Source: a virus. From it: a DNA stretch of 64,000 nt. The notes under the pieces were generated by a model that saw nothing but the letters and a program-made list of their open reading frames with translations, was not told where the DNA came from and ran no database searches. A program made the position numbers and the translations under genes. The DNA lies in IMG/VR virus record IMGVR_UViG_3300024261_000007, positions 69,025 to 133,024 of that record; one strand, given 5' to 3'. Within the stretch, counting starts at the first letter, position 1. Each line of letters begins with the position of its first letter. Below are positions 6,248-29,700 of the stretch, piece by piece.

Positions 6248-9200
6248 ATGGCAGAACAGACATTTAAGTCTCCAGGATTTTTCGAAAGAGAGATTGAGTT
6301 AGTTAGTCGTCCTCTTACACGAAATACAGCTACACCAGTGGGTGTAATTGGTCCTGCCCAAAAAGGACAAGCTTTCGTACCGAAAACAGTAACAAGCGTA
6401 GATGAATTTATCAGAGAATTCGGCATGCCCGACCAAGATACTTCAGCATCTCATGCTGTTGCTGAGTTTTTTGCAAATCGAGGTAAAGCAGCAACTTTCT
6501 GCCGTATTTTAGGTACTGGTAAAGGTTACGGCTCAGATCTTAAATTTGCAGGATTCAAACTAGATGGTGCAGACTTAGGGCAAAATCAAGCAAAAGGAGC
6601 AGTACAGTTTATTGTTGCAGAACACAAAGTTGATGACGCAGAACATGTTACATATGGTATTTTTAACGATAATGACTCAATCACAACAAACGCTGACGAA
6701 GACCCAAGTAATGGCTTAGTCGCTAACGACGACATAATACAGCTAGTTCGTGCAATGATTTTTATGCATAAGGATTATACGTTAAGAATCGTTTCAGGCG
6801 GTGGAACAGATCAATCTCAAGTGTCAGATGATGCTGATAAAACTTTTACTCTTTATATTCACGATGCAGTCAATAATTTGCTTGTAAAACAATATACAGT
6901 TTCTTTAGACCCAGCGTCTTCGCAATATATTTCAAAAGTTTTAAACACAGATTCTTTCAGTTTTACAAGCACAGGACACTTTCTTTATGCAGACTTTCCT
7001 GTAGAAGATCTTCTTGCATCAACTCGAGCACAAAGTGTTGCTGTAGTTAGAGGTAAAGATGACGGTAATTATTTGGATATGTATGGAGACTTTGTTTCTC
7101 GATTTGAAGCACCACGTACAACCTCGTTTATATCACAACCTTTTGGTGATAAAGAATATGACTTGTTTCACTTTGAATCTTTAGACGATGGAACATATGC
7201 AAGTGATGATTACAAGATTTCTATTGCAGATCTTCGTGCATCAACAGAGAAAAATTATAGATTTGGAACATTTACTGTTCAACTTCGTAAAATTGATGAT
7301 ACAGATGATGCGCCTATTATTTTAGAATCTTATGCAAGATGTTCTTTAGATCCAGATTCTCCAAATTATATCGCAAGACGAATTGGAGATCAAAAAGTTT
7401 ATTTAAATCTTGATACAAATGACGAAGATGAAAAGCGTCTGCTAAGAGAAGGTACTTTCCCGAGCCAGTCAACACGTATTCGAGTCGTAATGAATAAGTC
7501 AGTGACTCGCAACGAAATCCCAGAAGATTCTCTTCCTTTTGGTTATCGTGGTATTCCTACTTTAAGAACAACACCTAACGGTAAAGACGGAGGAGAAAAT
7601 CAAGTTTCTTTGCTTTCTGGTCGTGATGTTGTTTCCGGTGGTGCATCTGATGATTTAGGTTGTGCTGTATTGCCTCCTTTGCCTTTTAGATCAAAAGTAA
7701 CAAGAGGCAGTATGCAAAAAGACGGTACTTACTTTCAAACTTATTTTGGACAATCTTTAGAAGAGTCTAATGGCGTTGTACAAAAAGTAACTCAAGAAAA
7801 TGTTAAGTCTTATTTCTACTGGGGATTACATACACAAAAAGTAACAAATATTAACGAGCCTAATAGAGGTGGTTTAACTGATTTTAATCCGCTTATTATT
7901 AATTTAACAAAGTTCTTGACAAAGTCAGATGCACTTAAATTTAGTTCTGAAGAAGCAGACAGCTTTAACAATAACAAGTTTTCTTTATCGAAAGTTGCAT
8001 TCCCTTATGCTTCGATTACTGATATACCTAACGTATTGTCAGATGCCTTTTTAGAGGCAGCGTACATTCGAAATGCTGATGTTGGTTCAAATGCATACGA
8101 TTCTGTTGCACACACAATTAATATGGCAGCTGATAATATACAAGATGCATTTACAAATGAATTGCAAGGTCAAAGTCAGGCAATTCGTGCAACAATGGCT
8201 AAACTTTTAGCAGAAGATCCTGTTAAATTTAATAAGTACAGCTTGATGGCTAAGTTTACTGCTCCTTTTTATGGTGGTTTTGACGGTGTAAACATTTTAG
8301 ATAGAGATGACTTCTTCTTTACAGACAAATCATCGTCTATTGATGTAGATGGTCATGCTGGCGCTAATGGATATTTAAGTGGTCTATCAGGAACAAGTGA
8401 CATTAATGAGTCATTAGGTTTACCAATTCAAGGAACAAAGCTAAATAACAATGCAGTGTTATCTTATAGAGAAGCTATTCGTGTTATGACTGATGAAATG
8501 ATTGTAGATCATAATGTCTTGGTTGTTCCTGGTATTAGAGATTCATTAATTACAGACTTTGCTGCACGAAGAGTTAAAGATTTTGGCAAGGCAATATTCT
8601 TGATGGATATACCTCACTACGATGCAGCAGGAAATAGAATTTTTGTTTCTTCACGTGGCGTAGCAAGTGGTATTGCTGATGTTGATATGACTAGTCAGCA
8701 ATTTGATATTCGTGAACTTGATTCATCATATGTCGCAACATATTTTCCAGACGTTATGTTAAGAGATTCAGGAGATGTTGTAAGTGATGGCGCAACTCAA
8801 AATCAAAGAGTTGTAAGAACGCCTTCTTCAGTTGTAGCCCTTGGCGCACTTGCTCGAACAGACAATTTAGCAGGATCAGCACCCTGGTTTGCACCTGCAG
8901 GATTTTCTCGAGGTGCCCTTGGTAGAGTATCAAGTATTGATGTAAGATTAAACGCAGGTGATCGTGATACTCTTTACGAGGCAAGAATTAATCCGATTGC
9001 AAATTTCCCAAATAATCAGTTTGTTATCTTTGGTCAGAAGACAACACAAATTGCAAGAACAGCTTTGGACCGTGTAAACGTAAGAAGATTAATGATCAAT
9101 ATCAAGAGAAGAATTCAAAGAGTTGCACAAGGTCTTTTGTTTGAGCAAAATGATGCAGCAACAAGAAATAGATTTATTTCCCAGGCTTCTTCAATTCTTG

Positions 9201-9382
9201 CAGATGTTCGAGTAAGACAAGGTATTGAAGACTTTAGAGTTGTTATGGATGATACAAATAACTCTCAAGAAGACGTTGACAATAACAGACTGAATGGCCG
9301 AATTATTGTTGTTCCGACCAGAGCTGTTGAGTTTATTGCAATGGACTTTATTATTACAAATAGCGGCGTAGAATTCCCATAA
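6248..9382 (+). CDS. Contractile tail sheath protein 1
   Basis: SPGFFEREIE, GVIGPAQKG, PWFAPAGFSRG, INPIANF, GQKT, ALDRVNVRRL, PTRAVEFIAMDF. Confidence 0.92.
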   Translation: MAEQTFKSPGFFEREIELVSRPLTRNTATPVGVIGPAQKGQAFVPKTVTSVDEFIREFGMPDQDTSASHAVAEFFANRGKAATFCRILGTGKGYGSDLKFAGFKLDGADLGQNQAKGAVQFIVAEHKVDDAEHVTYGIFNDNDSITTNADEDPSNGLVANDDIIQLVRAMIFMHKDYTLRIVSGGGTDQSQVSDDADKTFTLYIHDAVNNLLVKQYTVSLDPASSQYISKVLNTDSFSFTSTGHFLYADFPVEDLLASTRAQSVAVVRGKDDGNYLDMYGDFVSRFEAPRTTSFISQPFGDKEYDLFHFESLDDGTYASDDYKISIADLRASTEKNYRFGTFTVQLRKIDDTDDAPIILESYARCSLDPDSPNYIARRIGDQKVYLNLDTNDEDEKRLLREGTFPSQSTRIRVVMNKSVTRNEIPEDSLPFGYRGIPTLRTTPNGKDGGENQVSLLSGRDVVSGGASDDLGCAVLPPLPFRSKVTRGSMQKDGTYFQTYFGQSLEESNGVVQKVTQENVKSYFYWGLHTQKVTNINEPNRGGLTDFNPLIINLTKFLTKSDALKFSSEEADSFNNNKFSLSKVAFPYASITDIPNVLSDAFLEAAYIRNADVGSNAYDSVAHTINMAADNIQDAFTNELQGQSQAIRATMAKLLAEDPVKFNKYSLMAKFTAPFYGGFDGVNILDRDDFFFTDKSSSIDVDGHAGANGYLSGLSGTSDINESLGLPIQGTKLNNNAVLSYREAIRVMTDEMIVDHNVLVVPGIRDSLITDFAARRVKDFGKAIFLMDIPHYDAAGNRIFVSSRGVASGIADVDMTSQQFDIRELDSSYVATYFPDVMLRDSGDVVSDGATQNQRVVRTPSSVVALGALARTDNLAGSAPWFAPAGFSRGALGRVSSIDVRLNAGDRDTLYEARINPIANFPNNQFVIFGQKTTQIARTALDRVNVRRLMINIKRRIQRVAQGLLFEQNDAATRNRFISQASSILADVRVRQGIEDFRVVMDDTNNSQEDVDNNRLNGRIIVVPTRAVEFIAMDFIITNSGVEFP

Positions 9383-9426
9383 GAAGTATAGTTATAATTA
9401 AATGAAATCAATAGGAGAAATATAAT

Positions 9427-12400
9427 ATGGCTGGACAAGGCTCAGCGAGAGTAACATTACGTGAAATCGACTTATCACAAGTTAGAAATCCGCAGCAACA
9501 ACCTCAAGGCGTTCCAGCTGCTGTTGTCGGCCCCGCGAGTAAAGGTCCAGCCTTTGTGCCTCGCACTTTTGCCAACATGCAGCAGTTCGAAGAAGTCTTT
9601 GGTTCTATGCGCGAAAGAGGATATCAAGGAAACGCCAACCTCTTCGGACCAATGGCTCTTAACGAATGGATGCGATCAGCAAGTGCTGGTACATATCTCC
9701 GCGTTTTAGGCGTTGGTGACGGTCTTAAATCAAGTGGCGGTAAAACAACAGATGCAGGCTTCGTAGTTGGTGCAAAACAAGTTCAAGAACAAAGTAATGA
9801 CTTGGGCAAAGTAGGTGATAACCCACACGCTACAATAGAGGATTCAAATGATGCTCTTGCTTTAGGTAGAACACAATTCCTTGGTTGCTTCATGAAAGAT
9901 TCAACAGGAAGCAATTTCTTAAAAGATGCTGGCATGGAAGCAGAAGGCTCAGCAGCATCTCTTGTTATAGAATTTGGTGCCTTGCCTCAATCAGGAGATA
10001 CAATCAAGCTTAACGCTGTTGATGAACAAGGTAATCTTAACGGTGACGTTACTTTTACTTTTGGTAACGGCGGAGTTGCAATCGGCGCTTCAGCTGTTGA
10101 AGCACTTGCAAATTTAAAAGCAGCAATAGAAGCAGATGGTCAATTAGGCGATAACGGTGACCATAGAATAGACGTTTCAGCTGTTGATGATGTTAATGGT
10201 TTAGCCGACGACAATCTTGCAAGAATAACTTTGACATCAGCATTCCCAGTAGCTTTAGATAGTACTAATGACTGTATTGCAAAGTTTAATTTAAATCCTG
10301 CAGGCGAAGGTAGCGATCTACTTATAAAAGTAGGTGACAAGACAGCTTCTGTTAAAGACGACACGTTTTCTTTTGCACAAGTAGGTGGAACTGCTGCTTT
10401 TGCTGATATTGTTTTAAGCGATCAACCTGCGGCTGGTGGAACTCTTTCAATAACAGCAATTACAAATGATGGTGATGGCACGTTCTCAGATCAGGATGTA
10501 GTATACACTTTTAAAGCCAATTTGGCTAATCCTGATGATGCTGCTGAACTTGCATCCGGTCAACAAGTTTCTGGTGTTTATAGAATTGCTAGCAATACAA
10601 GCGTTGAAGTCAAGATTGGTAATACTTTTGCAGATACGTCTTCAAACTTAAGAGCAGCATTTAGACGTGTTGCTTCTCAAGTTGGTGATGGTATCAGCAC
10701 TTCAACTAAACATGAAGGACTTTTTGTTGTTGGCGACTTAGACACTACTTCGTTTAGGCTTACACATGTCTTAAAAGGCGAAGCAAGTAGAAGTAAAAAT
10801 GACGGTGAAACAGCTCCAATTAGTGTTGATGCAACAAATCTTACTGTTAAAGGTGCTTCTGATATTAATAATACTCTTGATGATACTATTATTAACGATG
10901 ACACTGATGGTTTCTTTAAGAGTGGATCTGATGGTAGTGCAACAACATTGACAATGAAGCTATCAGACAACCCAAATTCAGGTGACAACTTAGAATTGCA
11001 AATGGTAGCTGCTGACGGTAGTATTAAAAAAGATAGTTTTGAGTTTGCTACACCTAATGTTTACTTAAATGGTAATGTAATCGTAGCTTCTTCAATTGCT
11101 GCTACTGCAGAATTAGTATATACTGGCAAGCCATTAGATACAGAAACACTTACATTAACAGACGCAAATGACGATTCTCTTGTCTTTGAGATAGATGAAG
11201 CAACAGACGACGTCGCTGGCGGAATAATGAGATCACGTCTACCAGCAGCACTTGGTGACGCTCTCGCAGATTCAGGCGCAGATATTGGACAAACAATAAC
11301 TTTAGAAGATACTGCAGGAACTTCAGAGACATATATTTTAACAGATACAGGAGCCGGTGGCCTTGCTACTGGTGCAGTTGTTGCATTAAATAATGATCTA
11401 GGCGATGGTAATTTAGCTGTCCAAGGGCAAGTAGGACATATTGCTGTAGGTGTTGATTTGACTAATGGCATATCAAAGCTTGTGCTAATAAGAGCATTGG
11501 CAGACGCAATTGCTTCTGCTGAGGGTCATGGTAATACTATTACAATAGAAGAAACAGACGTTGATGGTCAAGGTGGTAATGATAGTATTACCATATTCCA
11601 AAGCGTTGGTGATGCTGCTGGTAATACTGCAGTTACAACAGATATTGCGCCTATTGTTGCAATAAACAATACGAGCCTTACTCGAGGTATTGATCGAATT
11701 GCTGTAGGCATAAAGAGTGCAGCAGACGCAAATGCTGCAGCTGGTAGTCTTGTAAGCGCTATAAACAACTCAGCTTTAAGAATAACTGCAACAAGAGTAG
11801 GAAATGCATCTCCTGTTACATTAACGCAAGATGACGTAGGAACATTAGGCAATGACAAAGATATTGCTGAAACTTTGACAAACTATACAGCAGATGAAAC
11901 ATTTGCGGGTGGTGTAGATGTTATTGCAATAGAGCTAGGAGTTGACAAGCAAGAGACTTTGTATAATATGCGTCGTGCTTTAAGCGCAAACACAACAGCT
12001 TTTTCTCAAACTTTGTTATCATCAGCAGTTTCAGATTCAGCTGACAGTATTACGATTTCTATGTTGCAAGAGAAAGGTTCACTTAAATCTGCTTTAACAA
12101 ATGTAATTAATGTATCTGATGCAGCATTATTTTCAAATCCAGCTGGAGAAATTAAGCTTGGCAACTTTGGCGAAAAGCAAGAAAACTTTAGTGGCGGCGG
12201 TGGCGCTGCAACACCAGTAATTCGTGGCGTATTGATGACTCCTCAAGGTGTAAAGGCTGCAATGGACGTTGCTGCTGGACTTGATGATCTCGTAAATTCA
12301 GTTGAAGGTAGTGCTCACATAAGATCAGTTGCACATGGTAAAACTTTTGGTGTTACAGCAGGAACGAACTTAACAGGTTATACGATTGGTGAAGTTTCTG

Positions 12401-14778
12401 AAACGCAAGGTTTCAAGATTATTTTAAATGGTTATTCAAACACCCAGAACCCTGCGGTTTTAAATTGTTCGTTTAATCCTGATTCACCATCATATTTTGC
12501 AAAAGTGTTAAACACAGATTCAACAAAGATTGAAGAGTTAGGTCATTATTTATACGCATGGTGGGATGTAAAACCTGCTGTTGCAAGTCCATCCAATGTA
12601 GGTTTAAGACATTCAGGTGGACAATTAAGTGCTGAATATGAAAGAATGATTGGTTTCTTAACTGAAGGTGCTTCTGGAAGAGACGGATCTCTTGATGGTA
12701 GCAAGCCAAATTATGAAAACTTTGAATCAAAATTCCGAACATCATGTACTCCTTGGATTGTTTCTCAGTTCTACGGTTCTGAAGGTGATCAAGCAGTAAG
12801 ACCAGCTACAGCAAAAAGTGGTGATTCTTTAAGATTATTTAAACTTCATTCATTGGACGATGGATCTGCAAGTAATAATAAGTTTAGATTGTTAATTTCT
12901 AATTTAAGATATGTATCAGACACTGAATATGGTTCGTTTGATATGGCACTTGAGAGTTGGGATTCTGACCCAATTAAGGGCACTCCGCTTGCTGCTTGGA
13001 AAAATGCTTCATTAGATCCAATGAGCAATAACTTTGTTGGTCGTTTAGTTGGTGACAAGCATATTTATTTTGACTTTGAAAAAGATGCAGATAAGCAACG
13101 GTTAAGAGAAGAAGGTCAATATGCACAAAAAAATCCTTACGTTAGAATTGAACTTTCAGATGGCTTAAAGAAAGGAAATATTCCGGTTGATGCTTTACCA
13201 ACAGGTTTCCAAGGTCACTCTATTCTTTTCACAAATACATCAGGTAACTTTATTGAGCCTACCGACTTAGTAGAAAGCAAAAGAATATTTACAGATGCTG
13301 CCGATAACGTATCTTCAGTATTGTCTACAATGCAGGTTCTTCCAATGGACTATGTTATTTCTATTAATAGACAGCCTATTCAAGATATATTTGAAGCTGA
13401 TGATGACTTAGCTTGGGGTGTTAAGTTTGGTTTAAGAGAATCTCAAGTTGATTTTATAAGTGATTCAAATAGAGGACATAAAGAAAATCAAGAGCAAGTA
13501 TTTAATAAATCAATGTTATCTTGGGCCAAGTTCTTCCCGGACTTTGGTTCAAATCCAGCAATGTTGACTGACGGTGATGATACTGACTTGGCACAGAATT
13601 CTTTCTTCTCTCTTGAAAAGATTGAAATACCATCAAGTTCTTTGACTTCTGACAAAATTACTTCATGGGATGGATCAATGTATCGTAGAAATGCAGGTGC
13701 TGCACCATCAAATGGAAGTAGATTTGTTAATATTTCGAAAGATGCAAATGTAAAGAACTTAAGATATCTTAAATTCCGTTGTATGTTCCAAGGTGGATTT
13801 GATGGCGTTAATATCTTTGACGAGCAAAAAGCAGAATTTAGTGGAACAGCAACATTGCGTGAAGGTTTTGATGAGACTGATAGCAAGAAGTTTACTGGAC
13901 CGACAATTATGTCTTATCGTCGCGCAGTTGACGTTCTTTCTGACAAGTCTGCAGCAGAATTCCAACTTCTTGTTTTGCCTGGTCAAAGAGCTTCTGCAAT
14001 AACTGATTACGCAATTTCTGCTTGTGAAGATCGATTTGATGCATTGTACTTAATGGACATTGTTGAAAAGAATGATAGTGATATTGCAATTGAAGATGCA
14101 CAAGAAAAAGCAAACGTAAGAAATACAATTCGTGAGTTTAGTCAAAGATTGCTTGATACATCATTTGCAGCTGCTTACTTCCCAGACGTTTTGATGAGAA
14201 GACCTTCTGATAATGCACCAACATTGGTACCACCTTCAGTAGGTATGCTTGGTGCATTAAGTCGTAATGATTCAATTGCTGATCCATGGTTTGCACCTGC
14301 TGGTTTAAATCGAGGTCGTCTAAATGCTATTGATTCAAAGGTCCAAATGACTCGCGATTTACTTGATGAATTATACGATGCAGACATTAATCCAATTTAC
14401 GTTCCAGCAGGACGTAGTGGTGAGGTTTATGCCTTTGGTCAGAAGACATTATTACAAGATCAATCAGCACTTGATAGAATCAATGTGAGACGTCTTCTTA
14501 TCGATATACGTCGTAAGGTTCGCAAAGTTGGTGAGCAATTACTCTTTGAGCCAAATAGAGCATCTACTCTTTCAAGATTTTCTGGACTTGTAGAGCCAAT
14601 TATGGCAAACGTTCAAGCTCGTCGCGGCGTTGCTCGTTATAAGGTGCAAATTGATGCTTCAACAACAACTCAAGCAGATGTTGAAAACAATACAATAAGA
14701 GGAAAGATTTATTTACAACCTCTTAAGTCTGTAGAGTTTATTTCTCTTGATTTTGTTGTAGCAAACAATATTGAATAG
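9427..14778 (+). CDS. Contractile tail sheath protein 2 with large internal repeat-domain insertion
   Basis: REIDLS, VVGPASKGPAFVP, PWFAPAGLNRG, INPIY, GQKT, ALDRINVRRL, PLKSVEFISLDF; 1783 aa. Confidence 0.92.
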   Translation: MAGQGSARVTLREIDLSQVRNPQQQPQGVPAAVVGPASKGPAFVPRTFANMQQFEEVFGSMRERGYQGNANLFGPMALNEWMRSASAGTYLRVLGVGDGLKSSGGKTTDAGFVVGAKQVQEQSNDLGKVGDNPHATIEDSNDALALGRTQFLGCFMKDSTGSNFLKDAGMEAEGSAASLVIEFGALPQSGDTIKLNAVDEQGNLNGDVTFTFGNGGVAIGASAVEALANLKAAIEADGQLGDNGDHRIDVSAVDDVNGLADDNLARITLTSAFPVALDSTNDCIAKFNLNPAGEGSDLLIKVGDKTASVKDDTFSFAQVGGTAAFADIVLSDQPAAGGTLSITAITNDGDGTFSDQDVVYTFKANLANPDDAAELASGQQVSGVYRIASNTSVEVKIGNTFADTSSNLRAAFRRVASQVGDGISTSTKHEGLFVVGDLDTTSFRLTHVLKGEASRSKNDGETAPISVDATNLTVKGASDINNTLDDTIINDDTDGFFKSGSDGSATTLTMKLSDNPNSGDNLELQMVAADGSIKKDSFEFATPNVYLNGNVIVASSIAATAELVYTGKPLDTETLTLTDANDDSLVFEIDEATDDVAGGIMRSRLPAALGDALADSGADIGQTITLEDTAGTSETYILTDTGAGGLATGAVVALNNDLGDGNLAVQGQVGHIAVGVDLTNGISKLVLIRALADAIASAEGHGNTITIEETDVDGQGGNDSITIFQSVGDAAGNTAVTTDIAPIVAINNTSLTRGIDRIAVGIKSAADANAAAGSLVSAINNSALRITATRVGNASPVTLTQDDVGTLGNDKDIAETLTNYTADETFAGGVDVIAIELGVDKQETLYNMRRALSANTTAFSQTLLSSAVSDSADSITISMLQEKGSLKSALTNVINVSDAALFSNPAGEIKLGNFGEKQENFSGGGGAATPVIRGVLMTPQGVKAAMDVAAGLDDLVNSVEGSAHIRSVAHGKTFGVTAGTNLTGYTIGEVSETQGFKIILNGYSNTQNPAVLNCSFNPDSPSYFAKVLNTDSTKIEELGHYLYAWWDVKPAVASPSNVGLRHSGGQLSAEYERMIGFLTEGASGRDGSLDGSKPNYENFESKFRTSCTPWIVSQFYGSEGDQAVRPATAKSGDSLRLFKLHSLDDGSASNNKFRLLISNLRYVSDTEYGSFDMALESWDSDPIKGTPLAAWKNASLDPMSNNFVGRLVGDKHIYFDFEKDADKQRLREEGQYAQKNPYVRIELSDGLKKGNIPVDALPTGFQGHSILFTNTSGNFIEPTDLVESKRIFTDAADNVSSVLSTMQVLPMDYVISINRQPIQDIFEADDDLAWGVKFGLRESQVDFISDSNRGHKENQEQVFNKSMLSWAKFFPDFGSNPAMLTDGDDTDLAQNSFFSLEKIEIPSSSLTSDKITSWDGSMYRRNAGAAPSNGSRFVNISKDANVKNLRYLKFRCMFQGGFDGVNIFDEQKAEFSGTATLREGFDETDSKKFTGPTIMSYRRAVDVLSDKSAAEFQLLVLPGQRASAITDYAISACEDRFDALYLMDIVEKNDSDIAIEDAQEKANVRNTIREFSQRLLDTSFAAAYFPDVLMRRPSDNAPTLVPPSVGMLGALSRNDSIADPWFAPAGLNRGRLNAIDSKVQMTRDLLDELYDADINPIYVPAGRSGEVYAFGQKTLLQDQSALDRINVRRLLIDIRRKVRKVGEQLLFEPNRASTLSRFSGLVEPIMANVQARRGVARYKVQIDASTTTQADVENNTIRGKIYLQPLKSVEFISLDFVVANNIE

Positions 14779-14829
14779 ATAAAGTGATAGATATATATAA
14801 TTAAAGAAAGAATTTAGGAGTTATTAAAC

Positions 14830-15318
14830 ATGGCTGAGACACTATCCGTTACAGAAATGATACCCAATAAGTTTGAACCAAAGAGAAAGAATCGATGGGT
14901 CTTTGCTATTGAAGGTATCGACGCGTTTCTTATGAAGACTGCGAACCGTCCTTCGTATTCAACAAACGAAACAACAATCCCTTTTATAAATAGTACCCGC
15001 TACCTTGCTGGTAAGACAACTTTTGATACAATGTCTGTGACACTTCATGACCCAATTGCACCTTCAGGCGCACAACAGGTTATGGAATGGATCAGAACTC
15101 ACTTCGAGTCAGTATCAGGTCGCGCTGGTTACGCTGACTTTTATAAGAGAGACTGCCAACTCAAGATGCTTGATCCAGTTGGCACAGTTGTAGAACTTTG
15201 GGACATCAAAGGAGCTTTCTTGACAACAGCTTCCTTTGGTGACTTAAGTTATGACGGCGACGATCCACAAGAGATTTCTCTTACTCTTCGCTTTGACAAC
15301 TGTGTACTACAATACTAA
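14830..15318 (+). CDS. Tail tube protein, T4 gp19-like
   Basis: FEPKRKNRW, YLAGKTTF, QQVMEW, YKRDCQLKMLDPVG..VELWDIKGAF, LTLRFD; directly after sheath. Confidence 0.9.
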   Translation: MAETLSVTEMIPNKFEPKRKNRWVFAIEGIDAFLMKTANRPSYSTNETTIPFINSTRYLAGKTTFDTMSVTLHDPIAPSGAQQVMEWIRTHFESVSGRAGYADFYKRDCQLKMLDPVGTVVELWDIKGAFLTTASFGDLSYDGDDPQEISLTLRFDNCVLQY

Positions 15319-15358
15319 TTAAAAATATAGCAACACAGCTTGCCATCTTCTAAAGAAC

Positions 15359-15392
15359 CAAAAAAAGAGTATCTCTTGGTGCTCTTTTTTTG
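15359..15392. terminator. Rho-independent terminator, potentially bidirectional
   Basis: CAAAAAAAGAGTATC-TCTT-GGTGCTCTTTTTTTG hairpin with A and T tracts. Confidence 0.75.
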
Positions 15393-15472
15393 TATCTGTT
15401 AAACTATTTTTCTTTTAAAATATAATTTATCAATAATTAAATTAAAATAAAACAGAAACAACTAGGTAAACA

Positions 15473-20227: not shown

Positions 20228-20256
20228 ATAATTATTAAAAAGCTTTGAGGATCGCT

Positions 20257-20511: not shown

Positions 20512-23500
20512 TGGACTCCTTAACACAGTCGCTAAATTTGCAGGTTGATATTACTGCAAGCCTATACGAAACTCTTAGCGATATGGCTGGAGGTTTGCGT
20601 GAATTTAATTCAAAAATGGCTAAAAAAACAGATGCTGCTACACAATTAGCAAATTCATTGCAAACACTTAAGCTTAATTTTGATTCTAATTCTACTATTC
20701 TTAAGTCACAAAGTATTGCAGGACGAGACCAATCAAGAGCATTAGTTGATGTAAGCAAAAAAATAATACAAAATAATAACCAGAATATAAAACTTATAAA
20801 TGAAAGTATAAATTCAGTAAATATAAAGTCAGACGTTGCAAGCCTTAGACAAATTAGTAATAATTTAAAAATTGCTGTTGAAGACAACAGTATAAATTTT
20901 ATAGACAGCAGCGAAATATTAGAAATAGTTGCTAATATCGATCAAAACGCTTTAAAATCAGCAGCTGAACATTTATTAGAGGTTAGTAATACAAAAACAA
21001 TCCCACAAAAACTAGCTGATCCTAATCAAGTTGACTCACTAAACAGCGCAACGCAAAACATTTCAGACAACGCAAAAGATTTAAACGATTCAACAATTGA
21101 TTTAGACTTACTTTTAAATGACACAGAAGACAATATTTCCAGTTTAAAAGAAGCAACTGATAATATGCTTTTAATTGCTGAAGAAAGTGAAAGAAATTCT
21201 TTTATAACAAGTGCTCTTACAAAAGCAGTAACTCTCCTATCAGAAATAACAGACACAATTATGACTGGTGGTTTATCACTTCTTAAGTCACTCCCTTCAT
21301 TAGCTTTTTCAATTTTAAAATATTTAGCAACTCTTAGCTTGAATATGACTACAATGATGGGTAAAGCAGTCGCACTTACAATGTCTTTACCTTTTACACT
21401 CGCTCAGGTTGCTGCAAAGTGGGGAAATAAAATTAGATCTGATTTAGCTACAATTCGAGAAGGAGGAGAAGAAGCAAAAGAATCTTTTGATTTAAGTTCT
21501 CGAATCGGTCAAGGTGCAGAAATATTAACAAAAAAAGCGCAAGGAATGCTTAAACTATTTCAAAATCCAGAAAGCAAAATGGTTAAACTTTTTGGAATGG
21601 GTACAGCTGGTATAAATACATTTCAAAAAGAAATATTTACTGCAACTGATGCTATGGGTCACTTTGCTGAGTATTTTGGTCGACCTATTATGGAAAATAT
21701 TAAATTAGGCGTTGCATTTATACAAGCCCAAAAGGCATTAGGTGTTAGTACACAAGACATAGGATATTATGCGCTCCAAGCATATCTTTCAGGCAAAGAT
21801 CCTACAACTACATTACTTGAAGTTAAAGATGCAATTAAAAGTGCTTCTGACAGGTCCGGTTTTGATTTTAAAGCTTTGGCATTGCAATTTCATAAATTAA
21901 GAACCAACATTGTTGAATTTGGTCACTTAACAAATTATGAAATTGCAAATTTAACTGCAAAGCTCCGCGGCATGAAAGTCAAAACAGAAGATGCTGTTAA
22001 CGTATTTAAAAAATTTAGCACTTTCGAAGAAGCAGCAAAGTCATCAGCTCAACTATATCAATCATTTAAAATGAATATTGATGCATTAGATTTGTTAACT
22101 GCAAAAGATCCAGGAGAAATGTTGCAACAATTTAGAGATGCAATGTTTGAAACAGGAAAAGCATTTAAAGACCTAAACAGACATGAAAAATCTTTAATGT
22201 CATCTATAACAGGAATTTCAGCAGAGTCGCTCAAGTCTTTAATGAATTATATGGACTTAGGATATACGCAAGACGAAGCTATGCAAAAAATGGAGAAAGA
22301 AGATCCAGCAAAAGAGCAGCTAAAGTTAATAAAAGGTTTAACTTCAGCTGTTAAACAATACCAGAAAATATTACAGTTTGAAAGTCCTTTTCAAGCTTTC
22401 TATGAAGGTTTAATTAATAATGCTATGGGTCACAAAGAACTGGATCAAACTTTAATAGATTTTAGCAAAGTTTACCAGTCATTGTGGAAGTTAGGTTTTT
22501 CTTTAGATCTTGAGGTAATTTCCGGTCTTTTAGGGCCAGTAAATTCTATACTTGGTAGAATTAGAGACTTATTAACAAACCGGAATTTTTTTAGTCTTCT
22601 AAGAAACGGATTAAACGCAGTTTCTGACTTTATGAAAGGCGTGTCATACGACTTAAAGGAAGAAGGTTTAAATAAAGATCTTGCTGCGTTTGAAGAAATG
22701 ATAAAAGGATTTGATTATGCAGCAAAAAGAAGAACAGATTCGAATTCGTTACTCTTAGGAATGAGTACAGACTTAATAACATCATTCAAAACATCAGTTG
22801 GAAATATAAACAATTTAGACTTAAACGTTCAAAAGCTTCTTTTAGATGCAAAGATAATTTATAAAGACAAAAAAACTAAACTTTTTAAGTATACAAAAAA
22901 CTTTACTCTTCAAGGTGTGATTGATGCTTTAAGCTTAGGCGCTGATGTATTTTCGTCAAATCCTAAACTTTTAGCTAAAATTCAAAATATTTTTGATAAA
23001 TTAAATATTACTTATGACAAAAAAGTAAAAAATGTATTTAACAGTGATGAAATTAAAGATGCAAAAGTAAAAGGTGGATCATTTACAACATCAGAAGGTA
23101 GAACAGAAAATCTTTATACACATTTAGAAAACTTATTTACAAAAGGCTCTCCTCATTTTAATGCAACTTTAGATGTAGGTAGAGATCTTATGCATGCAAT
23201 AGTTACAAGTTTATTTAAAGGTGCAACTATGTTTTTTAAGCTTGCAAGTGGACAAATTGATATGACAGTCAAGTCGCTTGGCCTTGTAGTTACAGATGAA
23301 ATGAAGGCAGTTGCTGCTAAAAAAGGCATTCCAGTAAAACAACTAACTATTTTAGATGTAATTGGTTTAAATAAAAAAGAGCTTTCAACAGTAACTAATA
23401 ATTTAAGTAAGGAAGTAATAGACTTTACAGCAAGTCTACCTTCTCTTGTAACTATGGTTGGTGGTTTACTTGCTGATATGATGGGTGTATTTGGAAAAAT

Positions 23501-24983
23501 TGCTGGTGGTATTGCAGATGGTATTGCAGAAATTATCCTGGATTATTATGATGGAATAGATCGAGATCCTAAACTTGACTTTTTTGATAAAATAATGATG
23601 AAAAATATAATAAGATCGTTTTTTAGTAATGAAAAAATGGTTAAAGCTAAAAAAAGCTCAGCCTCAAAAGTAATTCAAAGCCAAGGAATGCTGCAAGGCA
23701 TAAATACATTTGAGTCTCAATACTTGAGTAAAGGAATGTTAGACCCGTCTAATGATAAAGCTTCAAGTAAAGAAAAAGTTAATCAATTTAATGAGTTTAT
23801 ATCAAGGTCAGCGTTAGGATTACAAAATGAATTTGACAATATTATAAATAGTAATTTAAAAAACAAAAAGAGCCCTTTAACTTCTTTTCTAAAAGCTGTT
23901 CAAACCAATCTTAGAAGTAGTAATGCATTAAATCCTGGTGACATTTTAAACTCAAAAAATATAATGGGTAGAGTTTCTCATATAAAAAAGATTTTAGAAG
24001 CAATAGGGCATTACAATTATCTCAAAACACAAGATATTGACGAGTCAAAATTTATTAGTTATTCAAATGATCCAAATTATCAAAATTTTATAAAATTTTA
24101 TAGAAAAACTTTAAATAAAAAAGTAAATAACTATGCAAAAAACTTATCTGTTTTGTTTGACAAGTATGACAATGACGATGAGAAATTTCGTCGTGATCAC
24201 GCAGTAGATAAGTTTGACTTTAAAAGTAGACCTATAGGTGGTTTAAAAGATGCAGAATTAGAAAAAAATTATATAAATAATAATATAAAATTTTTAGAAA
24301 CTCAAAATAAAAAGAAATTATCACCTGAGAATTTTATACAACAATACAATAAGAAAAATAGAAGTAAATCTATAAGCTTAACAAAAGACTTTGAGCTCTT
24401 AAATGGAAAAGATACATACGTTGTTGTAGGAAATAAAAAAGTATATAAATTACATCCAGACGATTCTTTATTTGCTACAAAAGAAAAAGGTTATTGGAAT
24501 AAAATGTTGATTAGATTTGCAAATGTTTACGAAGATGTAATTGCAAAAATTTCTTCTAAATCAAATAAATCTTTTAATGACTTAAAAATAAAAAGTAGCA
24601 TTTTAAAAGAAAATATAAATAGTTTGACTTTAAACATACAAAAATATTCTAAAGAAATATTAAATAGTGCAAGTGATAAATTAAACAATCACGTGGATAT
24701 TTTTAGTACAAATTTAAAAAGCATACTTAAAAGTTATAGTGAAATAAACAATAGTCTTGAAAAACAAAACAAAGAAATTATAGTTGCTAATAATAATTTT
24801 AAAAATGTAAGTATTGTTAAAAGTAAAATTGAAAATGTTCTTAAAGAAGCAACAGACAATTTAAATATTGAAGAAAATGCATCTGAAGATGATATAAATG
24901 ATCTGTATGATTTATGTAAAGACATAATTATGATTGCTGTAAACAAAAAGATAAATATAAACACTCAGGTCGTTGTAGGCTAA
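20511..24983 (+). CDS. Tape-measure-like protein 1
   Basis: 1490 aa helical protein downstream of chaperone; FSTFEEAAKSSAQL..FKMNIDALDLL core shared with next gene. Confidence 0.75.
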   Translation: MDSLTQSLNLQVDITASLYETLSDMAGGLREFNSKMAKKTDAATQLANSLQTLKLNFDSNSTILKSQSIAGRDQSRALVDVSKKIIQNNNQNIKLINESINSVNIKSDVASLRQISNNLKIAVEDNSINFIDSSEILEIVANIDQNALKSAAEHLLEVSNTKTIPQKLADPNQVDSLNSATQNISDNAKDLNDSTIDLDLLLNDTEDNISSLKEATDNMLLIAEESERNSFITSALTKAVTLLSEITDTIMTGGLSLLKSLPSLAFSILKYLATLSLNMTTMMGKAVALTMSLPFTLAQVAAKWGNKIRSDLATIREGGEEAKESFDLSSRIGQGAEILTKKAQGMLKLFQNPESKMVKLFGMGTAGINTFQKEIFTATDAMGHFAEYFGRPIMENIKLGVAFIQAQKALGVSTQDIGYYALQAYLSGKDPTTTLLEVKDAIKSASDRSGFDFKALALQFHKLRTNIVEFGHLTNYEIANLTAKLRGMKVKTEDAVNVFKKFSTFEEAAKSSAQLYQSFKMNIDALDLLTAKDPGEMLQQFRDAMFETGKAFKDLNRHEKSLMSSITGISAESLKSLMNYMDLGYTQDEAMQKMEKEDPAKEQLKLIKGLTSAVKQYQKILQFESPFQAFYEGLINNAMGHKELDQTLIDFSKVYQSLWKLGFSLDLEVISGLLGPVNSILGRIRDLLTNRNFFSLLRNGLNAVSDFMKGVSYDLKEEGLNKDLAAFEEMIKGFDYAAKRRTDSNSLLLGMSTDLITSFKTSVGNINNLDLNVQKLLLDAKIIYKDKKTKLFKYTKNFTLQGVIDALSLGADVFSSNPKLLAKIQNIFDKLNITYDKKVKNVFNSDEIKDAKVKGGSFTTSEGRTENLYTHLENLFTKGSPHFNATLDVGRDLMHAIVTSLFKGATMFFKLASGQIDMTVKSLGLVVTDEMKAVAAKKGIPVKQLTILDVIGLNKKELSTVTNNLSKEVIDFTASLPSLVTMVGGLLADMMGVFGKIAGGIADGIAEIILDYYDGIDRDPKLDFFDKIMMKNIIRSFFSNEKMVKAKKSSASKVIQSQGMLQGINTFESQYLSKGMLDPSNDKASSKEKVNQFNEFISRSALGLQNEFDNIINSNLKNKKSPLTSFLKAVQTNLRSSNALNPGDILNSKNIMGRVSHIKKILEAIGHYNYLKTQDIDESKFISYSNDPNYQNFIKFYRKTLNKKVNNYAKNLSVLFDKYDNDDEKFRRDHAVDKFDFKSRPIGGLKDAELEKNYINNNIKFLETQNKKKLSPENFIQQYNKKNRSKSISLTKDFELLNGKDTYVVVGNKKVYKLHPDDSLFATKEKGYWNKMLIRFANVYEDVIAKISSKSNKSFNDLKIKSSILKENINSLTLNIQKYSKEILNSASDKLNNHVDIFSTNLKSILKSYSEINNSLEKQNKEIIVANNNFKNVSIVKSKIENVLKEATDNLNIEENASEDDINDLYDLCKDIIMIAVNKKININTQVVVG

Positions 24984-25005
24984 AATTTTGAAAGTGATAA
25001 TTTAA

Positions 25006-28000
25006 ATGGCAATTGATGATCAAAACAACCCAAGTGATACTGGACAAAGTAAAGAAAATAAACCAGTAGTTTCTCAAGAAGACATAAAAGCAGTTGCTCA
25101 AATTAAAAAAAATCTTAGAGAATCCAGTTCAGCATTGAACAGTATTAGTGAGGCAATTGCTGCACAGACAGACTGGGCCTTACAACTAAATAGATCTTTT
25201 GAAAATTATCAAAATGAAATGATTAAAAATTCTAACAACATCGTTTCAAATACTCAAGATATGTTAGAAGTACTTAGTGAAACTTCAGAAAATATTAGTC
25301 AAAGTTATAACCCTCATTTATTTGGAAGCTTTCAGAAAGCAAACACTTCAACTGTTAGAGGTATTAAAGCTCAAGCACAAATATTTCAAGAAATGTCGGA
25401 CGTATCAACAACAGTTATTTCTGAAATACAGACAGCGCATAAAAACATAAACAGTACTGCCATTAAGTCAGCAACAAACAGTGTTAATAGTATACAGGTT
25501 GCTAAAGAAATAGTTGAAAGTTTAGGACAAACATCTGAAGGTGTGCAAACAGTTAATGAAACAGTTGTCAGAGATCAACTTGATATCTTAGCGACACAAA
25601 AAGGCATAAACGAAGTAATTATACAGCAGACAAAAGATATAAACACAGTAAATACGCAATCTGAAAAAATTACTGGAGATCTTCTTGAAGGGTTGTCAAA
25701 TACTACTGAGGGCTTAACAGCAGTTACTCATGGCGTAAGTGATATTGTTGATAACGTCCAATATCATGACGATATTATGGATGACTTTCTTTTAAATATT
25801 TACGAAGCTAACGAAGGATTGCAGGATTTGTCTACGACGACTGAAGAGCTTAATGACGCTGTTTCTTCGTTTGGCGGCGGCGCAATGAATATTTTAAAAA
25901 CAGCCGGGTCAGCTCTTACTAGCGTATTTAAACTTGTCAGTGGCGTTGTTTTAAATACGTTAACTTTGGTCTCAACATTTGTAAAACTTGTTGCAACACT
26001 TCCTTTTACAGTAATGAAAGTTGCTGCTAAAATTGGTAATAAACTCAGACAGGATATAGTTGAAGTTATAGGCATGGCTTCAGAAGAGCTTAAAGAAAAG
26101 TTTGACATGAACTCTACAATTGGTGAAGGCATTATGGCTATGACTAATAGAGGTAAAGGAATGTTAAAAGCTTTTCAAAATCCTTCCTCATATTTAGTAA
26201 AACTTTTTGGAATGGGTGCAGCAGGCATTGCAAACATGATTAAAGAGTTGGGAACTCAAGTCGAAAGTATGGGACACTTCTCAGAATTGTTTGGAAAAAG
26301 CTTAGGAAAAAATGGTAAACTCTTTGAAGAATATATTACAATGGTAAGAGGTTTAGGCTTAACAGCTGAGGATGTAGGTTATCTTGCAATGGATGCAGGA
26401 AACCAATTAATGCATGTCAATGTAAGAATGAGAAATCTAACAGCAACAATAACAAATGTTTCAGAAGAATATGGCTTAGATAGAAAACGTCTTTCTAAAA
26501 ACTTTATGATGATGCGAAAAAATATCATTCAATTTGGACATTTAACCGATGAGGAGTTGGCAAGAACTACAGCTAATATGACTCAATTAAAAGTTAAAAT
26601 GGAAGACGCTACTGCGGTTTTTGATAAGTTTAGCACTTTTGAAGATGCAGCAAACTCTGTTGCAATGCTTTCACAAACTTTTGGTATGAATTTAAATGCG
26701 ATGGATATGATTCAAGCAAAAAATCCAGAAGATATTATTGAAATGTTTAGAAACTCAATGTTTGAAACTGGCAGAGCATTTCAAGATTTAAATCGATTTG
26801 AAAAAGACTTGATGTCACAGCACACAGGAATGTCAGCAGAAAGCCTGTCGGCACTTATGAATTACAGGGACATGGGACTGACTTACGAAGAAGCAAGAAA
26901 AAAAATGGAGTCACAAAGACCAGAAGCTAAGCAAATGGCTGCCATTAAAGATTTAAACTCTGCTATTAAACAATTTCAAAAGGTTCTGACTTTTGACAGC
27001 CCTTTTCAAGCTTTCATGGAAGGTATAATTAACAATACAACACTCACTGGTGATCTTAAAAACGTATTAGTTTCTGTAAGTGAAGGGTACCAAGGTATTT
27101 ATGATTTTGCGTCAAGCTTAAAAACTACAGAGTGGTATGAAATTGCTAGACCACTTAAAATGATTATTGATATAATGTCAAGTATTCTAAAAAGTGAAGA
27201 GTTTAGAAAAGGTTTACAAACTGGTTTAGAAGTTGCATCAACGTTTGTATCAACTGTTTTTGGCGTGTCTACAGGAGAAAGAGCTTTATCAGCTCTTGAA
27301 ATAAAAATAAAATCTGCAACTTCTAAGGGCGGAGTTCTTGATGCAAGAAGCAAAGACCCGGTTGTTGTAAAAAATAGAGCATTATTTCTTGACGCATTTC
27401 AAGGTTTAGGTAATAGTGTAATTTCTCCTTTTATTGCAAAAGCTGGATTTACTTCAACAGAATTCTCAAACGTCAAAACTGATAAGGACATGTTTAGTTT
27501 ACTAAGTAAATTGCAAAATGCTGTCGATGCAGATTCTAGCTTAAAGCCTGCTTTAAATGATTTAATGTTTAAAATAAGTGAAAGAGCAAAGCTTATTCCA
27601 GAACAACTTAAACAAACGTTTGGTCAAAAGATAAAAGGAAAAGAAAAAGCTGTTGATTTTAAAGCATATGAGAGTTATGTTGAAGAACTAGACGATATGA
27701 TGATGACAATGATCAGGTCAAACGATAAAAACACAGCTAAGTTTGGCAATTTAATTGCAAGAATAACAAGAGCATTAATTGTTGGTGGCGCAATTGCTGC
27801 TACTGCTTTGTTAAGAATGGCAAACAAGATGATCAAAAAAGGAAAAGCTGAATATGATAAAATGCCTGATGATTATAACATGATTGAAGGCTTTTTAAAG
27901 ATGAAAAAGGGTGAACTTGGAAATCTTACTTCTGACTTGACTAAAGCTTTTTCTGAGTTTATGTCCAATTCAACAGCAATGTTTTCTTTGACAAAGTGGT

Positions 28001-29700
28001 TTTTAGGAGGATTTTTAGAAATATTTGGTACTATTTCCGGAACATTTTTAATGACCTTTAAAGATAAAATGGCAGAATATTTTCCGACAATTTTTGGCAA
28101 CAATGGCGCAAAACCAAAGCTTAATGCACGAGCACTTGGCGACTCTGCAATAAAGGCAAACAAAGGAAATCTTGATGCAAGTAGTACTTTAGCTTCAGCT
28201 AAGGCACAAAATGCTGTAACGGGTAAAACTGGAATTCAAATTGGTGCTGATCTTGTTACAGGAATGAGACAGCAATCTGGATCAATTAAAGACACAAGTC
28301 AAAGATCTACAATGTTAAGCTTTAGTCAAAACTTGTCTGAAAGTTTTGGACAAGCGTATGTTCCTGAAAAACATACAGATATTGCTCCAAAGATGGAAAA
28401 ATTATTAGGTACTGTTAAGGATGGGCAATTTACAGGTAACATTAAAAAAATCGAGCTTTTAAATAAACTTTATAAAGAAGGTACGCTTAATCAAGAAAGC
28501 TTACTTGGAATATTGTTTGGAAATAGTGATACAAGGTCTGATGCTACATTTTCAATTGGCAAAAACATGAATGAGGAAGATATGTCTGAGATCATGGCTA
28601 GCGTTGACAAAGCTTCACCATTAGGCGCAGGTCCTCAATTTACTCCGACTACTCCGACTACTCCGACTATTTTAGACTTGGACGAATATTTTAATAATGG
28701 TGCGATTTTAAATGATATTGAAGTACCTTTTGTTGAAAAAAATAGTTTTAATAGCATGTTAAGTCAAGCTGGATTAGATATACCTAAATTACTTGCAGCG
28801 CAAAGAGGAAAAAGTCCAGACGAATTAACACCTAAGCAAGTAGGTTCGATTGTTGATACATTAAGATCACATCCTAAATTTATTAATATGCAAGAAGAGC
28901 TAAAACAAACACCTTTAAGACTTCGAAATCAAAAAGTTCAAAATGAATTAAAAGGACTTATAGTTTCAACTATTAAAGATATGAGAAATCAAGCTTTTCC
29001 AGACCAAAACAATGCAGTACTTTCAGCGAATGCTCCGGCTATGACAAGCGCACAACCAACAAAAGATTTTATGTTAACAGCGATTGCTGGAATGACAAAG
29101 ATTCCTGACGTTATAAAGAAAGCAACTGCTGGAATAAAAAGACCTTCTTTGAAAAGCTTTTCTGGAAATATTGCGGATAAAAGTATTGTTGCTTTTAATG
29201 AAATAAATAGATCTGTTAATGATTTATCTTCCAATATGATGTATAAGGTACCTTCTGAAGATTTGTTTAAACAGACAGCAATCAGTGAATCTTCTGTTAT
29301 ATTAGAGAAGTATGACAAAGAATCAGTAGGCGTCGTAGAATTTAGTGGTAATGTTAATATGAGTGATTTGTATAATACAGCTAAAATAGTAAAAGACAAT
29401 AGTAAAAATAAGATTAGCAAAAAGAAAGTTGAAGAAATGAAGTTAGCTTTGACTGAACATAAAAAAGGTTATGAGGATAAAGAGCATAGTATTGATTCAA
29501 AACTTGTCTTAAACAAGGAAATAATAGACTTACTCGCTGCAGAATTAACTGGTCCTTTAGTGACAAAGAATTTAGCTCGAGCATTTACAGATCCAAGATT
29601 TACACAAGGTGTTATGTCAATGAAAGAAGACGTCTTTACGTCTCCTACTTTAAATACAGGCTCAGACTCTGGTGGTTATTCTGAAAAGTTGCGTCAATAA
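25006..29700 (+). CDS. Tape-measure-like protein 2 (paralog)
   Basis: 1564 aa; FSTFEDAANSVAML..FGMNLNAMDMI, GMLKAFQNP, LVKLFGMGAAGI match TMP1. Confidence 0.75.
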   Translation: MAIDDQNNPSDTGQSKENKPVVSQEDIKAVAQIKKNLRESSSALNSISEAIAAQTDWALQLNRSFENYQNEMIKNSNNIVSNTQDMLEVLSETSENISQSYNPHLFGSFQKANTSTVRGIKAQAQIFQEMSDVSTTVISEIQTAHKNINSTAIKSATNSVNSIQVAKEIVESLGQTSEGVQTVNETVVRDQLDILATQKGINEVIIQQTKDINTVNTQSEKITGDLLEGLSNTTEGLTAVTHGVSDIVDNVQYHDDIMDDFLLNIYEANEGLQDLSTTTEELNDAVSSFGGGAMNILKTAGSALTSVFKLVSGVVLNTLTLVSTFVKLVATLPFTVMKVAAKIGNKLRQDIVEVIGMASEELKEKFDMNSTIGEGIMAMTNRGKGMLKAFQNPSSYLVKLFGMGAAGIANMIKELGTQVESMGHFSELFGKSLGKNGKLFEEYITMVRGLGLTAEDVGYLAMDAGNQLMHVNVRMRNLTATITNVSEEYGLDRKRLSKNFMMMRKNIIQFGHLTDEELARTTANMTQLKVKMEDATAVFDKFSTFEDAANSVAMLSQTFGMNLNAMDMIQAKNPEDIIEMFRNSMFETGRAFQDLNRFEKDLMSQHTGMSAESLSALMNYRDMGLTYEEARKKMESQRPEAKQMAAIKDLNSAIKQFQKVLTFDSPFQAFMEGIINNTTLTGDLKNVLVSVSEGYQGIYDFASSLKTTEWYEIARPLKMIIDIMSSILKSEEFRKGLQTGLEVASTFVSTVFGVSTGERALSALEIKIKSATSKGGVLDARSKDPVVVKNRALFLDAFQGLGNSVISPFIAKAGFTSTEFSNVKTDKDMFSLLSKLQNAVDADSSLKPALNDLMFKISERAKLIPEQLKQTFGQKIKGKEKAVDFKAYESYVEELDDMMMTMIRSNDKNTAKFGNLIARITRALIVGGAIAATALLRMANKMIKKGKAEYDKMPDDYNMIEGFLKMKKGELGNLTSDLTKAFSEFMSNSTAMFSLTKWFLGGFLEIFGTISGTFLMTFKDKMAEYFPTIFGNNGAKPKLNARALGDSAIKANKGNLDASSTLASAKAQNAVTGKTGIQIGADLVTGMRQQSGSIKDTSQRSTMLSFSQNLSESFGQAYVPEKHTDIAPKMEKLLGTVKDGQFTGNIKKIELLNKLYKEGTLNQESLLGILFGNSDTRSDATFSIGKNMNEEDMSEIMASVDKASPLGAGPQFTPTTPTTPTILDLDEYFNNGAILNDIEVPFVEKNSFNSMLSQAGLDIPKLLAAQRGKSPDELTPKQVGSIVDTLRSHPKFINMQEELKQTPLRLRNQKVQNELKGLIVSTIKDMRNQAFPDQNNAVLSANAPAMTSAQPTKDFMLTAIAGMTKIPDVIKKATAGIKRPSLKSFSGNIADKSIVAFNEINRSVNDLSSNMMYKVPSEDLFKQTAISESSVILEKYDKESVGVVEFSGNVNMSDLYNTAKIVKDNSKNKISKKKVEEMKLALTEHKKGYEDKEHSIDSKLVLNKEIIDLLAAELTGPLVTKNLARAFTDPRFTQGVMSMKEDVFTSPTLNTGSDSGGYSEKLRQ
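28642..28668 (+). repeat. In-frame tandem repeat (ACTCCGACT)x3 encoding TPT x3
   Basis: Three exact 9-bp copies. Confidence 0.9.

Follow-up and report, generated by a model that had tools for sequence, protein, structure and literature searches.

How does a phage that encodes three tail sheath proteins and two tape-measure-like proteins build its tail? Contractile tails are usually taught as a homopolymer of one sheath protein combined with one ruler. The tail of phage T4, which has a single sheath gene and a single tape measure, comprises the gp18 sheath, the gp19 tube, the gp15 terminator and the gp29 tape measure. To our knowledge, two-component sheaths have been documented in one phage group, that of PaBG, and ordered three-paralog sheaths only in bacterial injection devices. 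The question is raised by a stretch of 64,000 bases (hereafter the window) which comprises bases 69025-133024 of the 133,024-base IMG/VR viral contig IMGVR_UViG_3300024261_000007. In this window three sheath genes, here called S1, S2 and S3, and two tape-measure-like genes, T1 and T2, lie in one tightly packed and co-oriented block of tail genes (Table 1). We propose, at about even chances, that three successive gene duplications led to a composite tail in which S1 and S2 would form a two-component sheath, S3 a low-copy ring and T1 and T2 a two-protein ruler.

The presence of the five open reading frames (ORFs), the four sheath motifs and the common core of T1 and T2 had been described in the first-pass annotation, and all of these hold. 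In BLASTP comparisons S1 and S2 shared 29% identity over 882 columns (E 2e-91), S2 matched S3 in the middle domain (E 1e-28) and at the N-terminus (E 8e-10), and S1 matched S3 at the N-terminus (E 2e-10). Profile-to-profile comparison with hhalign aligned the S3 family end-to-end with the S1 family (E 2.5e-63) and with the S2 family (E 1.6e-90), both at probability 100. Moreover, the motifs GPAxKGxAFVP, RVLGxG, LFxxxSLDDG and GGFDGVxI were present in all three proteins in the alignments, and a sheath-core profile searched against the 133-kb contig recovered exactly three ORFs (E 1.8e-167, 2.1e-166 and 9.3e-19), with nearly equal scores for S1 and S2. For the tape-measure-like pair, residues 11-711 of T1 and 24-751 of T2 aligned collinearly in blastp with 36% identity over 745 columns (394 bits, E 1e-117), while the common part of the C-terminal halves was restricted to a hydrophobic stretch of 75 residues at matching positions (28 bits, E 0.007). 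The claim of a single tube and a single neck set has to be narrowed. A tube profile of 33 orthologs matched one ORF of the contig (E 1.4e-101; next E 0.59) in a search that is blind to distant tube-fold proteins of the gp48/gp54 type, but the statement holds only for the sequence in hand. CheckV estimated the completeness of the contig at ~53%, which implies a genome of roughly 250 kb.

Neither decay of superfluous copies nor an assembly artefact explains the five genes, since the paralogs are intact, old and conserved and their junctions are bridged by independent contigs. All junctions are spanned by contigs of four other seawater runs (Logan), which are 95-100% identical to the region. A single contig of 14,301 bases spans positions 9222-23522 and thereby the end of S1, S2, the tube gene, S3, the hub gene and most of T1; other bridging contigs cover 7019-10044, 13752-16943, 17006-24449 and 24420-25999. 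An assembly chimera might be suspected from the G+C content, which falls from ~0.38 to ~0.29 at S3, but this shift lies at codon positions 1 and 2 and hence in the amino-acid make-up, and the G+C content of the third codon position (GC3) is constant (0.20 in S1, 0.21 in S2 and 0.19 in S3).

Searches of IMG/VR with S1, S2 and an alignment of seven T sequences yielded 60 and 40 loci, from which duplicates were removed. S2 followed S1 directly in all 47 distinct related loci. Of 44 distinct loci, 30 carry a third sheath paralog between the tube and the hub gene, with an intact ORF longer than 1000 amino acids (aa), and 14 lack it. One of the loci lacking S3 (L065) has 3.3 kb between tube and hub (19269-22630) which contain G+C-rich hairpins and are dissimilar to the tail proteins of the window. 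In the interval from the hub gene to X935, the gene of a 935-aa protein, 22 loci had a single T gene and 6 had a pair. Together with the window and locus L086, whose contig ends before X935, this gave eight complete T pairs, and in three more loci the second copy is cut by the end of the contig. Every locus with two T genes also has S3, and two T genes were found only in the nearest subclade of the window.

The order of these duplications can be read from the trees. The sheath tree was calculated from the first 115 and the last 420 residues (84 rows, 492 columns, LG+G4, quick search), leaving out ORFs below 900 aa, among them a split S1 gene in locus L052. S1 (34 rows, support 100), S2 (36 rows, 96) and S3 (11 rows, 100) formed separate clades, and by inspection the same subclades recurred in the S1 and the S2 subtree. 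The sheath of Microcystis phage Mel-JY01, which is the closest cultured phage with ~30% protein identity and a single sheath gene, and both sheaths of LR756508.1 were placed outside the S1/S2/S3 clade. As S1 and S2 are separate clades with these outgroups outside, the duplication that separated them predates the whole sampled clade. LR756508.1 (L008) is a 484-kb uncultured phage with two sheath genes of 824 aa each (16512-18986 and 20001-22475), which are separated by ~1 kb and followed by the tube gene after a further 7 kb; this pair may go back to a separate duplication.

In the quick tree S3 appeared as the sister of all S2 sequences. We put this placement down to long-branch attraction: with S3 nested within the S2 sequences of the S3-bearing genomes the log-likelihood was higher by 17.4, and this tree was not rejected (p-AU 0.81). 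The nested placement fits a single origin of S3, from a duplicated S2 gene, at the root of the subclade that carries it. In the T tree (45 rows, 743 columns) the upstream copies (11 rows, support 100) and the downstream copies (8 rows, 98) formed sister clades (97), which were nested among the single-copy relatives and contained the same subclades. This topology points to one later duplication, of which both copies have been kept since. The sheath duplication is thus far older and wider than that of the ruler.

Contrary to what the first-pass annotation had implied, S3 is not equivalent to S1 and S2 but is a degenerate, fast-evolving and probably younger copy of S2. S3 alone had no match in Pfam, PHROGs, NCBIfam or PDB sequences, and a PDB search with the profile of its family retrieved a single chain, that of a sheath protein, at E 0.25. 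Its sequence homology is therefore seen only via the paralogs of the window itself. No match to S3 was found among INPHARED phages either, and none in IMG/VR when S3 was used as a single query. An AlphaFold model of residues 27-1226, calculated with 32 S3-only sequences, reached a pLDDT of 69.6 and a pTM of 0.79. In Foldseek this model gave 44 PDB hits at E ≤0.001, and only sheath chains or sheath-bearing entries were among the matches listed; the best match was T4 gp18 (9mkb, E 2.4e-09, TM 0.50 on the target), and sheath chains of PVC and of the antifeeding prophage (AFP) were matched too. The model hence assigns a gp18-type fold to S3. Two N-terminal motifs, GxAxKGxAFVP and RVLG, are retained in the S3 orthologs, as are the GGFDG block and the middle domain, which holds most of their invariant columns, whereas none of the C-terminal lattice blocks described below has a consensus in them. 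Branches of S3 in the sheath tree are several-fold longer (0.18-1.83 vs a median of 0.15), and identity to the orthologs of L025/L026 is 37% for S3, 67% for S1, 82% for the hub and 98% for the tube. Moreover, S3 residues 714-748 (window 17612-17716) form a patch that varies between strains of the seawater runs by clustered substitutions and paired one-base indels which keep the frame. In the same runs S1 had no listed differences and S2 had three.

In the composite tail proposed here, S3, which has retained the fold of a sheath protein with its N-terminal handshake arm and the middle domain common to the paralogs and has lost the C-terminal lattice motifs, would form a low-copy ring at one end of the sheath. 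Judging by the terminator-like hairpin after the tube gene, which is kept in the nearest relatives of the window, the sheath-tube unit seems to end there, leaving S3 grouped with the hub and ruler genes. This grouping behind the hairpin speaks for the baseplate end. That S3 forms such a specialised ring is a tentative assignment to which we give slightly less than an even chance. The competing explanation that survives best, although we consider it rather unlikely, is a reuse of S3 outside the lattice, be it in outer decoration or fibre docking, as an assembly factor or as a host-interaction protein under diversifying selection. All C-terminal lattice motifs being gone, the fast evolution with the variable patch and the fact that conservation is best in the middle domain, which presumably faces outward, and not in the lattice core would suit such a role, as would the evidently working tails of the 14 loci without S3. 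Yet the arm motif and the sheath fold have been kept and the gene is always located between tube and hub. Besides, the Pvc4 initiator of the injection device PlPVC1 provides, in the accessible text of its report (PMC12546770), a precedent for a divergent sheath paralog that makes up a single ring.

For S1 and S2 the case is stronger, and both are quite probably structural subunits of the lattice as far as sequence comparison can tell. Both are unmistakably sheath proteins of the gp18 type and exceed the gathering cut-off of 26.9 bits of the Pfam family Phage_sheath_1C (PF17482). Against PDB sequences S1 matched the T4 gp18 chain 9mkb_1 (E 6.6e-34) and also the Pvc3, Pvc2 and Afp3 chains. The C-terminal blocks PWFAPAG, FGQKT, LDRxNVRRL, INPI and EFIxxDF are kept at ≥90% within the S1 family and likewise within the S2 family, and the same blocks were found in the sheath of Mel-JY01. 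Their conservation suggests that they mark lattice contacts. We read it, together with the equal core-profile scores, as a sign that both proteins are lattice subunits. In the model S1 and S2 would co-assemble into one contractile sheath round the single tube, in alternating or mixed rings, and S2 would carry a large outer insertion that varies between lineages. The extra stretch of S2 comprises ~730 aa (residues ~200-930, window ~10000-12200) and stands opposite a gap in S3 in the alignment. Across relatives the size of this insertion ranges from none to ~790 aa and the length of the S2 orthologs from 993 to 1590 aa, as compared with 1783 aa in the window; in distant relatives S1 and S2 are alike in size with ~1000 aa. 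The insertion contains no significant internal repeats, and its language-model neighbours score below 0.9 and lack an informative family. The insertion may serve as an outer domain for decoration or docking.

It is in our view unlikely that only one of the two proteins builds the helical sheath, which would then have one component, while the other, for which S2 would be the likeliest candidate, is restricted to a small number of rings or to a zone of collar or decoration. An insertion as variable as that of S2 would be easier to tolerate in a minor component, and the Pvc3 layers of PlPVC1 end short of the apical end, as the accessible text of PMC12546770 describes. However, S1 and S2 are equal in lattice motifs and in core-profile score, have similarly short branches, are of the same size in distant relatives and are encoded in one tight operon with a spacer of 44 nucleotides.

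T1 and T2 are likely of the tape-measure type, as judged by position, helical sequence, model, Foldseek matches and language-model neighbours. All relatives have their T gene or genes behind the hub gene and ahead of the distal tail genes. An N-terminal heptad-like sequence and hydrophobic stretches are readable in both proteins, and the model of the T2 core (residues 280-760) is all-helical with a pLDDT of 72. A Foldseek search of BFVD gave 9 hits at E ≤0.001, of which the named ones were tape measure or minor tail proteins, with TM values of only 0.23-0.45. The nearest named language-model clusters carry PF10145 (score 0.92), which we take as a lead only. T2 had no match among INPHARED phages and, as a single query, none in IMG/VR.

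Members of the T family range from 683 to 1564 aa, and the eight complete pairs measure 1490/1564, 1298/1387, 1161/1286, 1315/1383, 1271/1318, 1279/1331, 1248/1292 and 1077/1111 aa. The downstream copy is always the longer one, by 34-125 aa (3-11%), and the two lengths correlate with r = 0.97 over these 8 related pairs, a value that is uncorrected for shared descent. On the tree both copies lengthen in the lineage of the window, which has the longest pair; the shortest copies of that group belong to L073 and the shortest of all to L086. Such a co-variation is expected of two proteins that measure one tube. In the composite tail the lumen of the tube would house both T1 and T2, which would jointly act as the ruler; we make this assignment with some hesitation and give it a little less than an even chance. 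Alternatively, one of them could be the ruler and the other a different lumen or ejection protein, for instance a membrane- or wall-acting pilot, that has kept the ancestral N-terminal half. Such a split of roles would agree with the similarity being limited to the first ~750 residues and to 75 residues of the C-terminal halves. It would also resemble the Staphylococcus jumbo phage MarsHill, for which two tape-measure-like genes are described, one of them with peptidoglycan-degrading domains and annotated as tail lysin (accessible text of bioRxiv 10.1101/2020.12.14.422802). Nevertheless, the Pfam and NCBIfam scans found no enzymatic domain in T1 or T2, and a copy freed from ruling need not track the length of the other, so that we regard this split as improbable.

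The suggestion of the first-pass annotation that one genome might encode two tail types, with particles sheathed by S1 or S2 and measured by T1 or T2, is logically possible wherever structural paralogs exist but has nothing direct in its favour and is very improbable, as the tube, the neck set and the hub gene occur once each on the contig, in a single co-oriented block, no separate regulatory spacer lies between S1 and S2 (44 nucleotides) or between T1 and T2 (22 nucleotides), the lengths of T1 and T2 differ little and change in step, and the sheath duplication is so much older and wider than that of the ruler that the pairs did not arise as one alternative set.

Its other suggestion, position-specific sheath layers with a heteromeric ruler, stands in part. 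It fits the retention of S1 and S2, the motif loss of S3 and the co-varying rulers, but the positions of the subunits, like their copy numbers, are pure inference. A more specific version, in which a widespread marine clade evolved fixed layers independently of the injection devices, S3 starts or caps the sheath, S1 and S2 alternate, with S2 displaying a fast-changing outer domain, and in the youngest subclade a hetero-oligomer of T1 and T2 sets a tail of well over 200 nm, seems to us on the doubtful side. With the ~590 ruler residues per 100 nm of T4, a tail of roughly 230-260 nm would be expected.

Several further results weigh against the composite tail. The loss of the lattice motifs could equally mean that S3 lies outside the sheath. 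Of 33 distinct S3-bearing loci, 10 have a terminator-like hairpin of ≤ -11 kcal/mol after the tube gene, and in the other 23 it is weak or missing; it was also found in all 13 short tube-hub spacers of S3-less loci and accordingly marks the end of the sheath-tube unit and not S3 in particular. Codon use was uninformative as a proxy of abundance, with the GC3 of S1 and S2 not distinct from that of S3. On the side of the ruler, the low TM values and the shared descent behind the length correlation count here as well. Moreover, PF10145 was matched by none of 14 T family members (E up to 1), and T1 and T2 had no tail family in Pfam, PHROGs or NCBIfam, with no match at all in PHROGs and only chance-level ones in Pfam and NCBIfam (T2 in NCBIfam, E 0.12). 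The T profile gave only chance coiled-coil matches to PDB sequences (E ≥0.01). In L052, S1 is broken into ORFs of 282 and 642 aa (10001-12888); the near-identical L051 has an intact S1 of 1005 aa, and the split is a frameshift or a sequencing error. Finally, the contig covers about half of the genome, and further tube, sheath or ruler genes may lie outside the sequence in hand.

Among known systems the closest parallels are found in injection devices. In PlPVC1, according to the accessible text of PMC12546770, the Pvc4 initiator forms the first ring, which is followed by alternating Pvc2 and Pvc3, and only Pvc3 has a knob that is thought to dock fibres. The sheath of the Serratia antifeeding prophage comprises Afp2, Afp3 and Afp4 (PMC12961389, accessible text). 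As in the window, three sheath paralogs of the gp18 fold are combined with one main tube protein. Moreover, the extra outer knob of Pvc3 resembles the insertion of S2, and the divergent single ring of Pvc4 the possible role of S3. PVC and AFP are, however, headless bacterial devices with sheath proteins of 350-470 aa, whereas those of the window phage have 1044-1783 aa. The window phage is not a member of the extracellular contractile injection systems (eCIS), because its contig encodes a terminase, a portal, a prohead protease and a major capsid protein. We judge its duplications to be independent of those in eCIS, as they appear to have occurred within the phage clade with two outgroup phages outside, in a tree without eCIS sequences.

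Similar arrangements have also been described for phages. The PaBG group of Pseudomonas jumbo phages has two sheath proteins that arose by gene duplication, both of which are included in the virion band table (PMC7412058, accessible text). The window shares with it sheath paralog genes derived from duplication, with S1 and S2 kept across the relatives. In contrast, the PaBG proteins are a pair of ~58 kDa with 38% identity, whereas the window has three of 115-195 kDa, with S1 and S2 in tandem and 29% identical and the third one degenerate. The order of neck genes, gp15-like gene, sheath and tube, followed by hub and ruler, is that of T4, and the tube, hub and gp15-like proteins match T4 families; unlike in T4, the proteins of the window are two to three times longer and its ruler lacks detectable similarity to library families. 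With MarsHill the window shares two helical tape-measure-like proteins with hydrophobic segments in one myovirus genome. T1 and T2 differ from them as clear paralogs without enzyme domains, and neither paralogy nor a co-variation of lengths is described for the MarsHill pair in the accessible text. Phrase searches of the literature, with most subscription journals outside their coverage, retrieved the PaBG work but neither a three-paralog sheath nor a tandem of tape-measure paralogs in any phage.

The surrounding genes agree with a T4-like gene order across the contig. It starts with gp25-like and gp6-like wedge genes and very large genes without assigned function, and the head module, with the genes named above, is located at 47-60 kb. 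In the window the neck genes and the gp15-like gene are followed by S1, S2, the tube, S3, the hub, T1, T2 and the genes X935 and Y1965; downstream of the latter lie genes of replication and nucleotide metabolism. The gp15-like gene is found directly 5' of the sheath genes in related loci, too.

Table 1. Features of the tail gene block (window positions; E-values and scores from the searches described in the text).
Feature	Position	Strand	Evidence
Neck/adaptor protein, probably gp13-like, 492 aa	2822..4300	+	phrog_211 'head-tail adaptor Ad2', E 1.9e-07; upstream of sheath genes in relatives
Neck-module protein, 218 aa	4306..4962	+	No Pfam or PHROGs match; in relatives always between the 492-aa and gp15-like genes
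gp15-like tail sheath stabiliser / tail terminator, 408 aa	4962..6188	+	Pfam T4-gp15_tss, E 6.5e-04, under the gathering score
S1, sheath paralog 1, 1044 aa, predicted lattice-competent	6248..9382	+	Phage_sheath_1C, 33.6 bits; phrog_23 'tail sheath', E 2.2e-54
S2, sheath paralog 2, 1783 aa, predicted lattice-competent	9427..14778	+	Phage_sheath_1C, 27.7 bits; phrog_23, E 6.6e-44
Tail tube protein, gp19-like, 162 aa	14830..15318	+	phrog_4542, E 2.2e-29; Pfam Phage_T4_gp19, E 1.5e-04
Terminator-like hairpin followed by T-run	15359..15392	+	15-pair stem, loop of 4, -13.6 kcal/mol; between tube stop and S3 start
S3, third sheath paralog, 1226 aa	15473..19153	+	hhalign match to the S2 family, E 1.6e-90; AlphaFold model matches sheaths
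Baseplate hub protein, 281 aa	19165..20010	+	Pfam T4_baseplate, E 2.1e-18 (over cut-off); phrog_150 'baseplate hub', E 3.5e-22
T1, upstream tape-measure-like copy, 1490 aa	20511..24983	+	Paralog of T2
T2, downstream tape-measure-like copy, 1564 aa	25006..29700	+	Helical core; Foldseek matches to tape measures
X935, 935 aa	30000-32807	+	Always 3' of the T gene(s) in relatives
Y1965, 1965 aa	33136-39033	+	Order of hub, T, X935 and Y1965 kept in relatives

X935 and Y1965 matched no family in the Pfam, PHROGs and NCBIfam scans and are probably hub, baseplate or spike parts. A 2255-aa protein of Mel-JY01 showed a weak match to X935. Two small ORFs lie between the hub gene and T1 (19982-20227, 81 aa, and 20245-20511, 88 aa), and Mel-JY01 likewise has two small genes at the gap between hub and ruler; the products of the two ORFs might be ruler chaperones. 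Another tandem duplication is found 5' of the neck genes, where two ORFs of ~170 aa (1628-2143 and 2155-2667) both match phrog_36974 (E 1.5e-20 and 4.3e-21), a family of unknown function. Further downstream, genes of the window at 48466-49071, 50031-50732 and 53839-54810 encode another protease, of either the Clp or the head-maturation type, and two thymidylate-synthase-like proteins; this protease gene sits among the replication genes, distant from the prohead protease of the head module.

The sequencing runs that hold DNA of the contig are seawater, marine and viral metagenomes, and the window belongs to a large and evidently common group of uncultured seawater phages. Its relatives form a natural series from two sheath genes to three and on to three with two rulers, in which the copies have been kept intact. 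It offers a way to study how new types of subunit are taken up by a helical machine and how a ruler made of two proteins would gauge length. Should the more specific, layered version of the tail prove true, sheath layers fixed in position and a tape measure of two proteins would have been met here for the first time in a virus.

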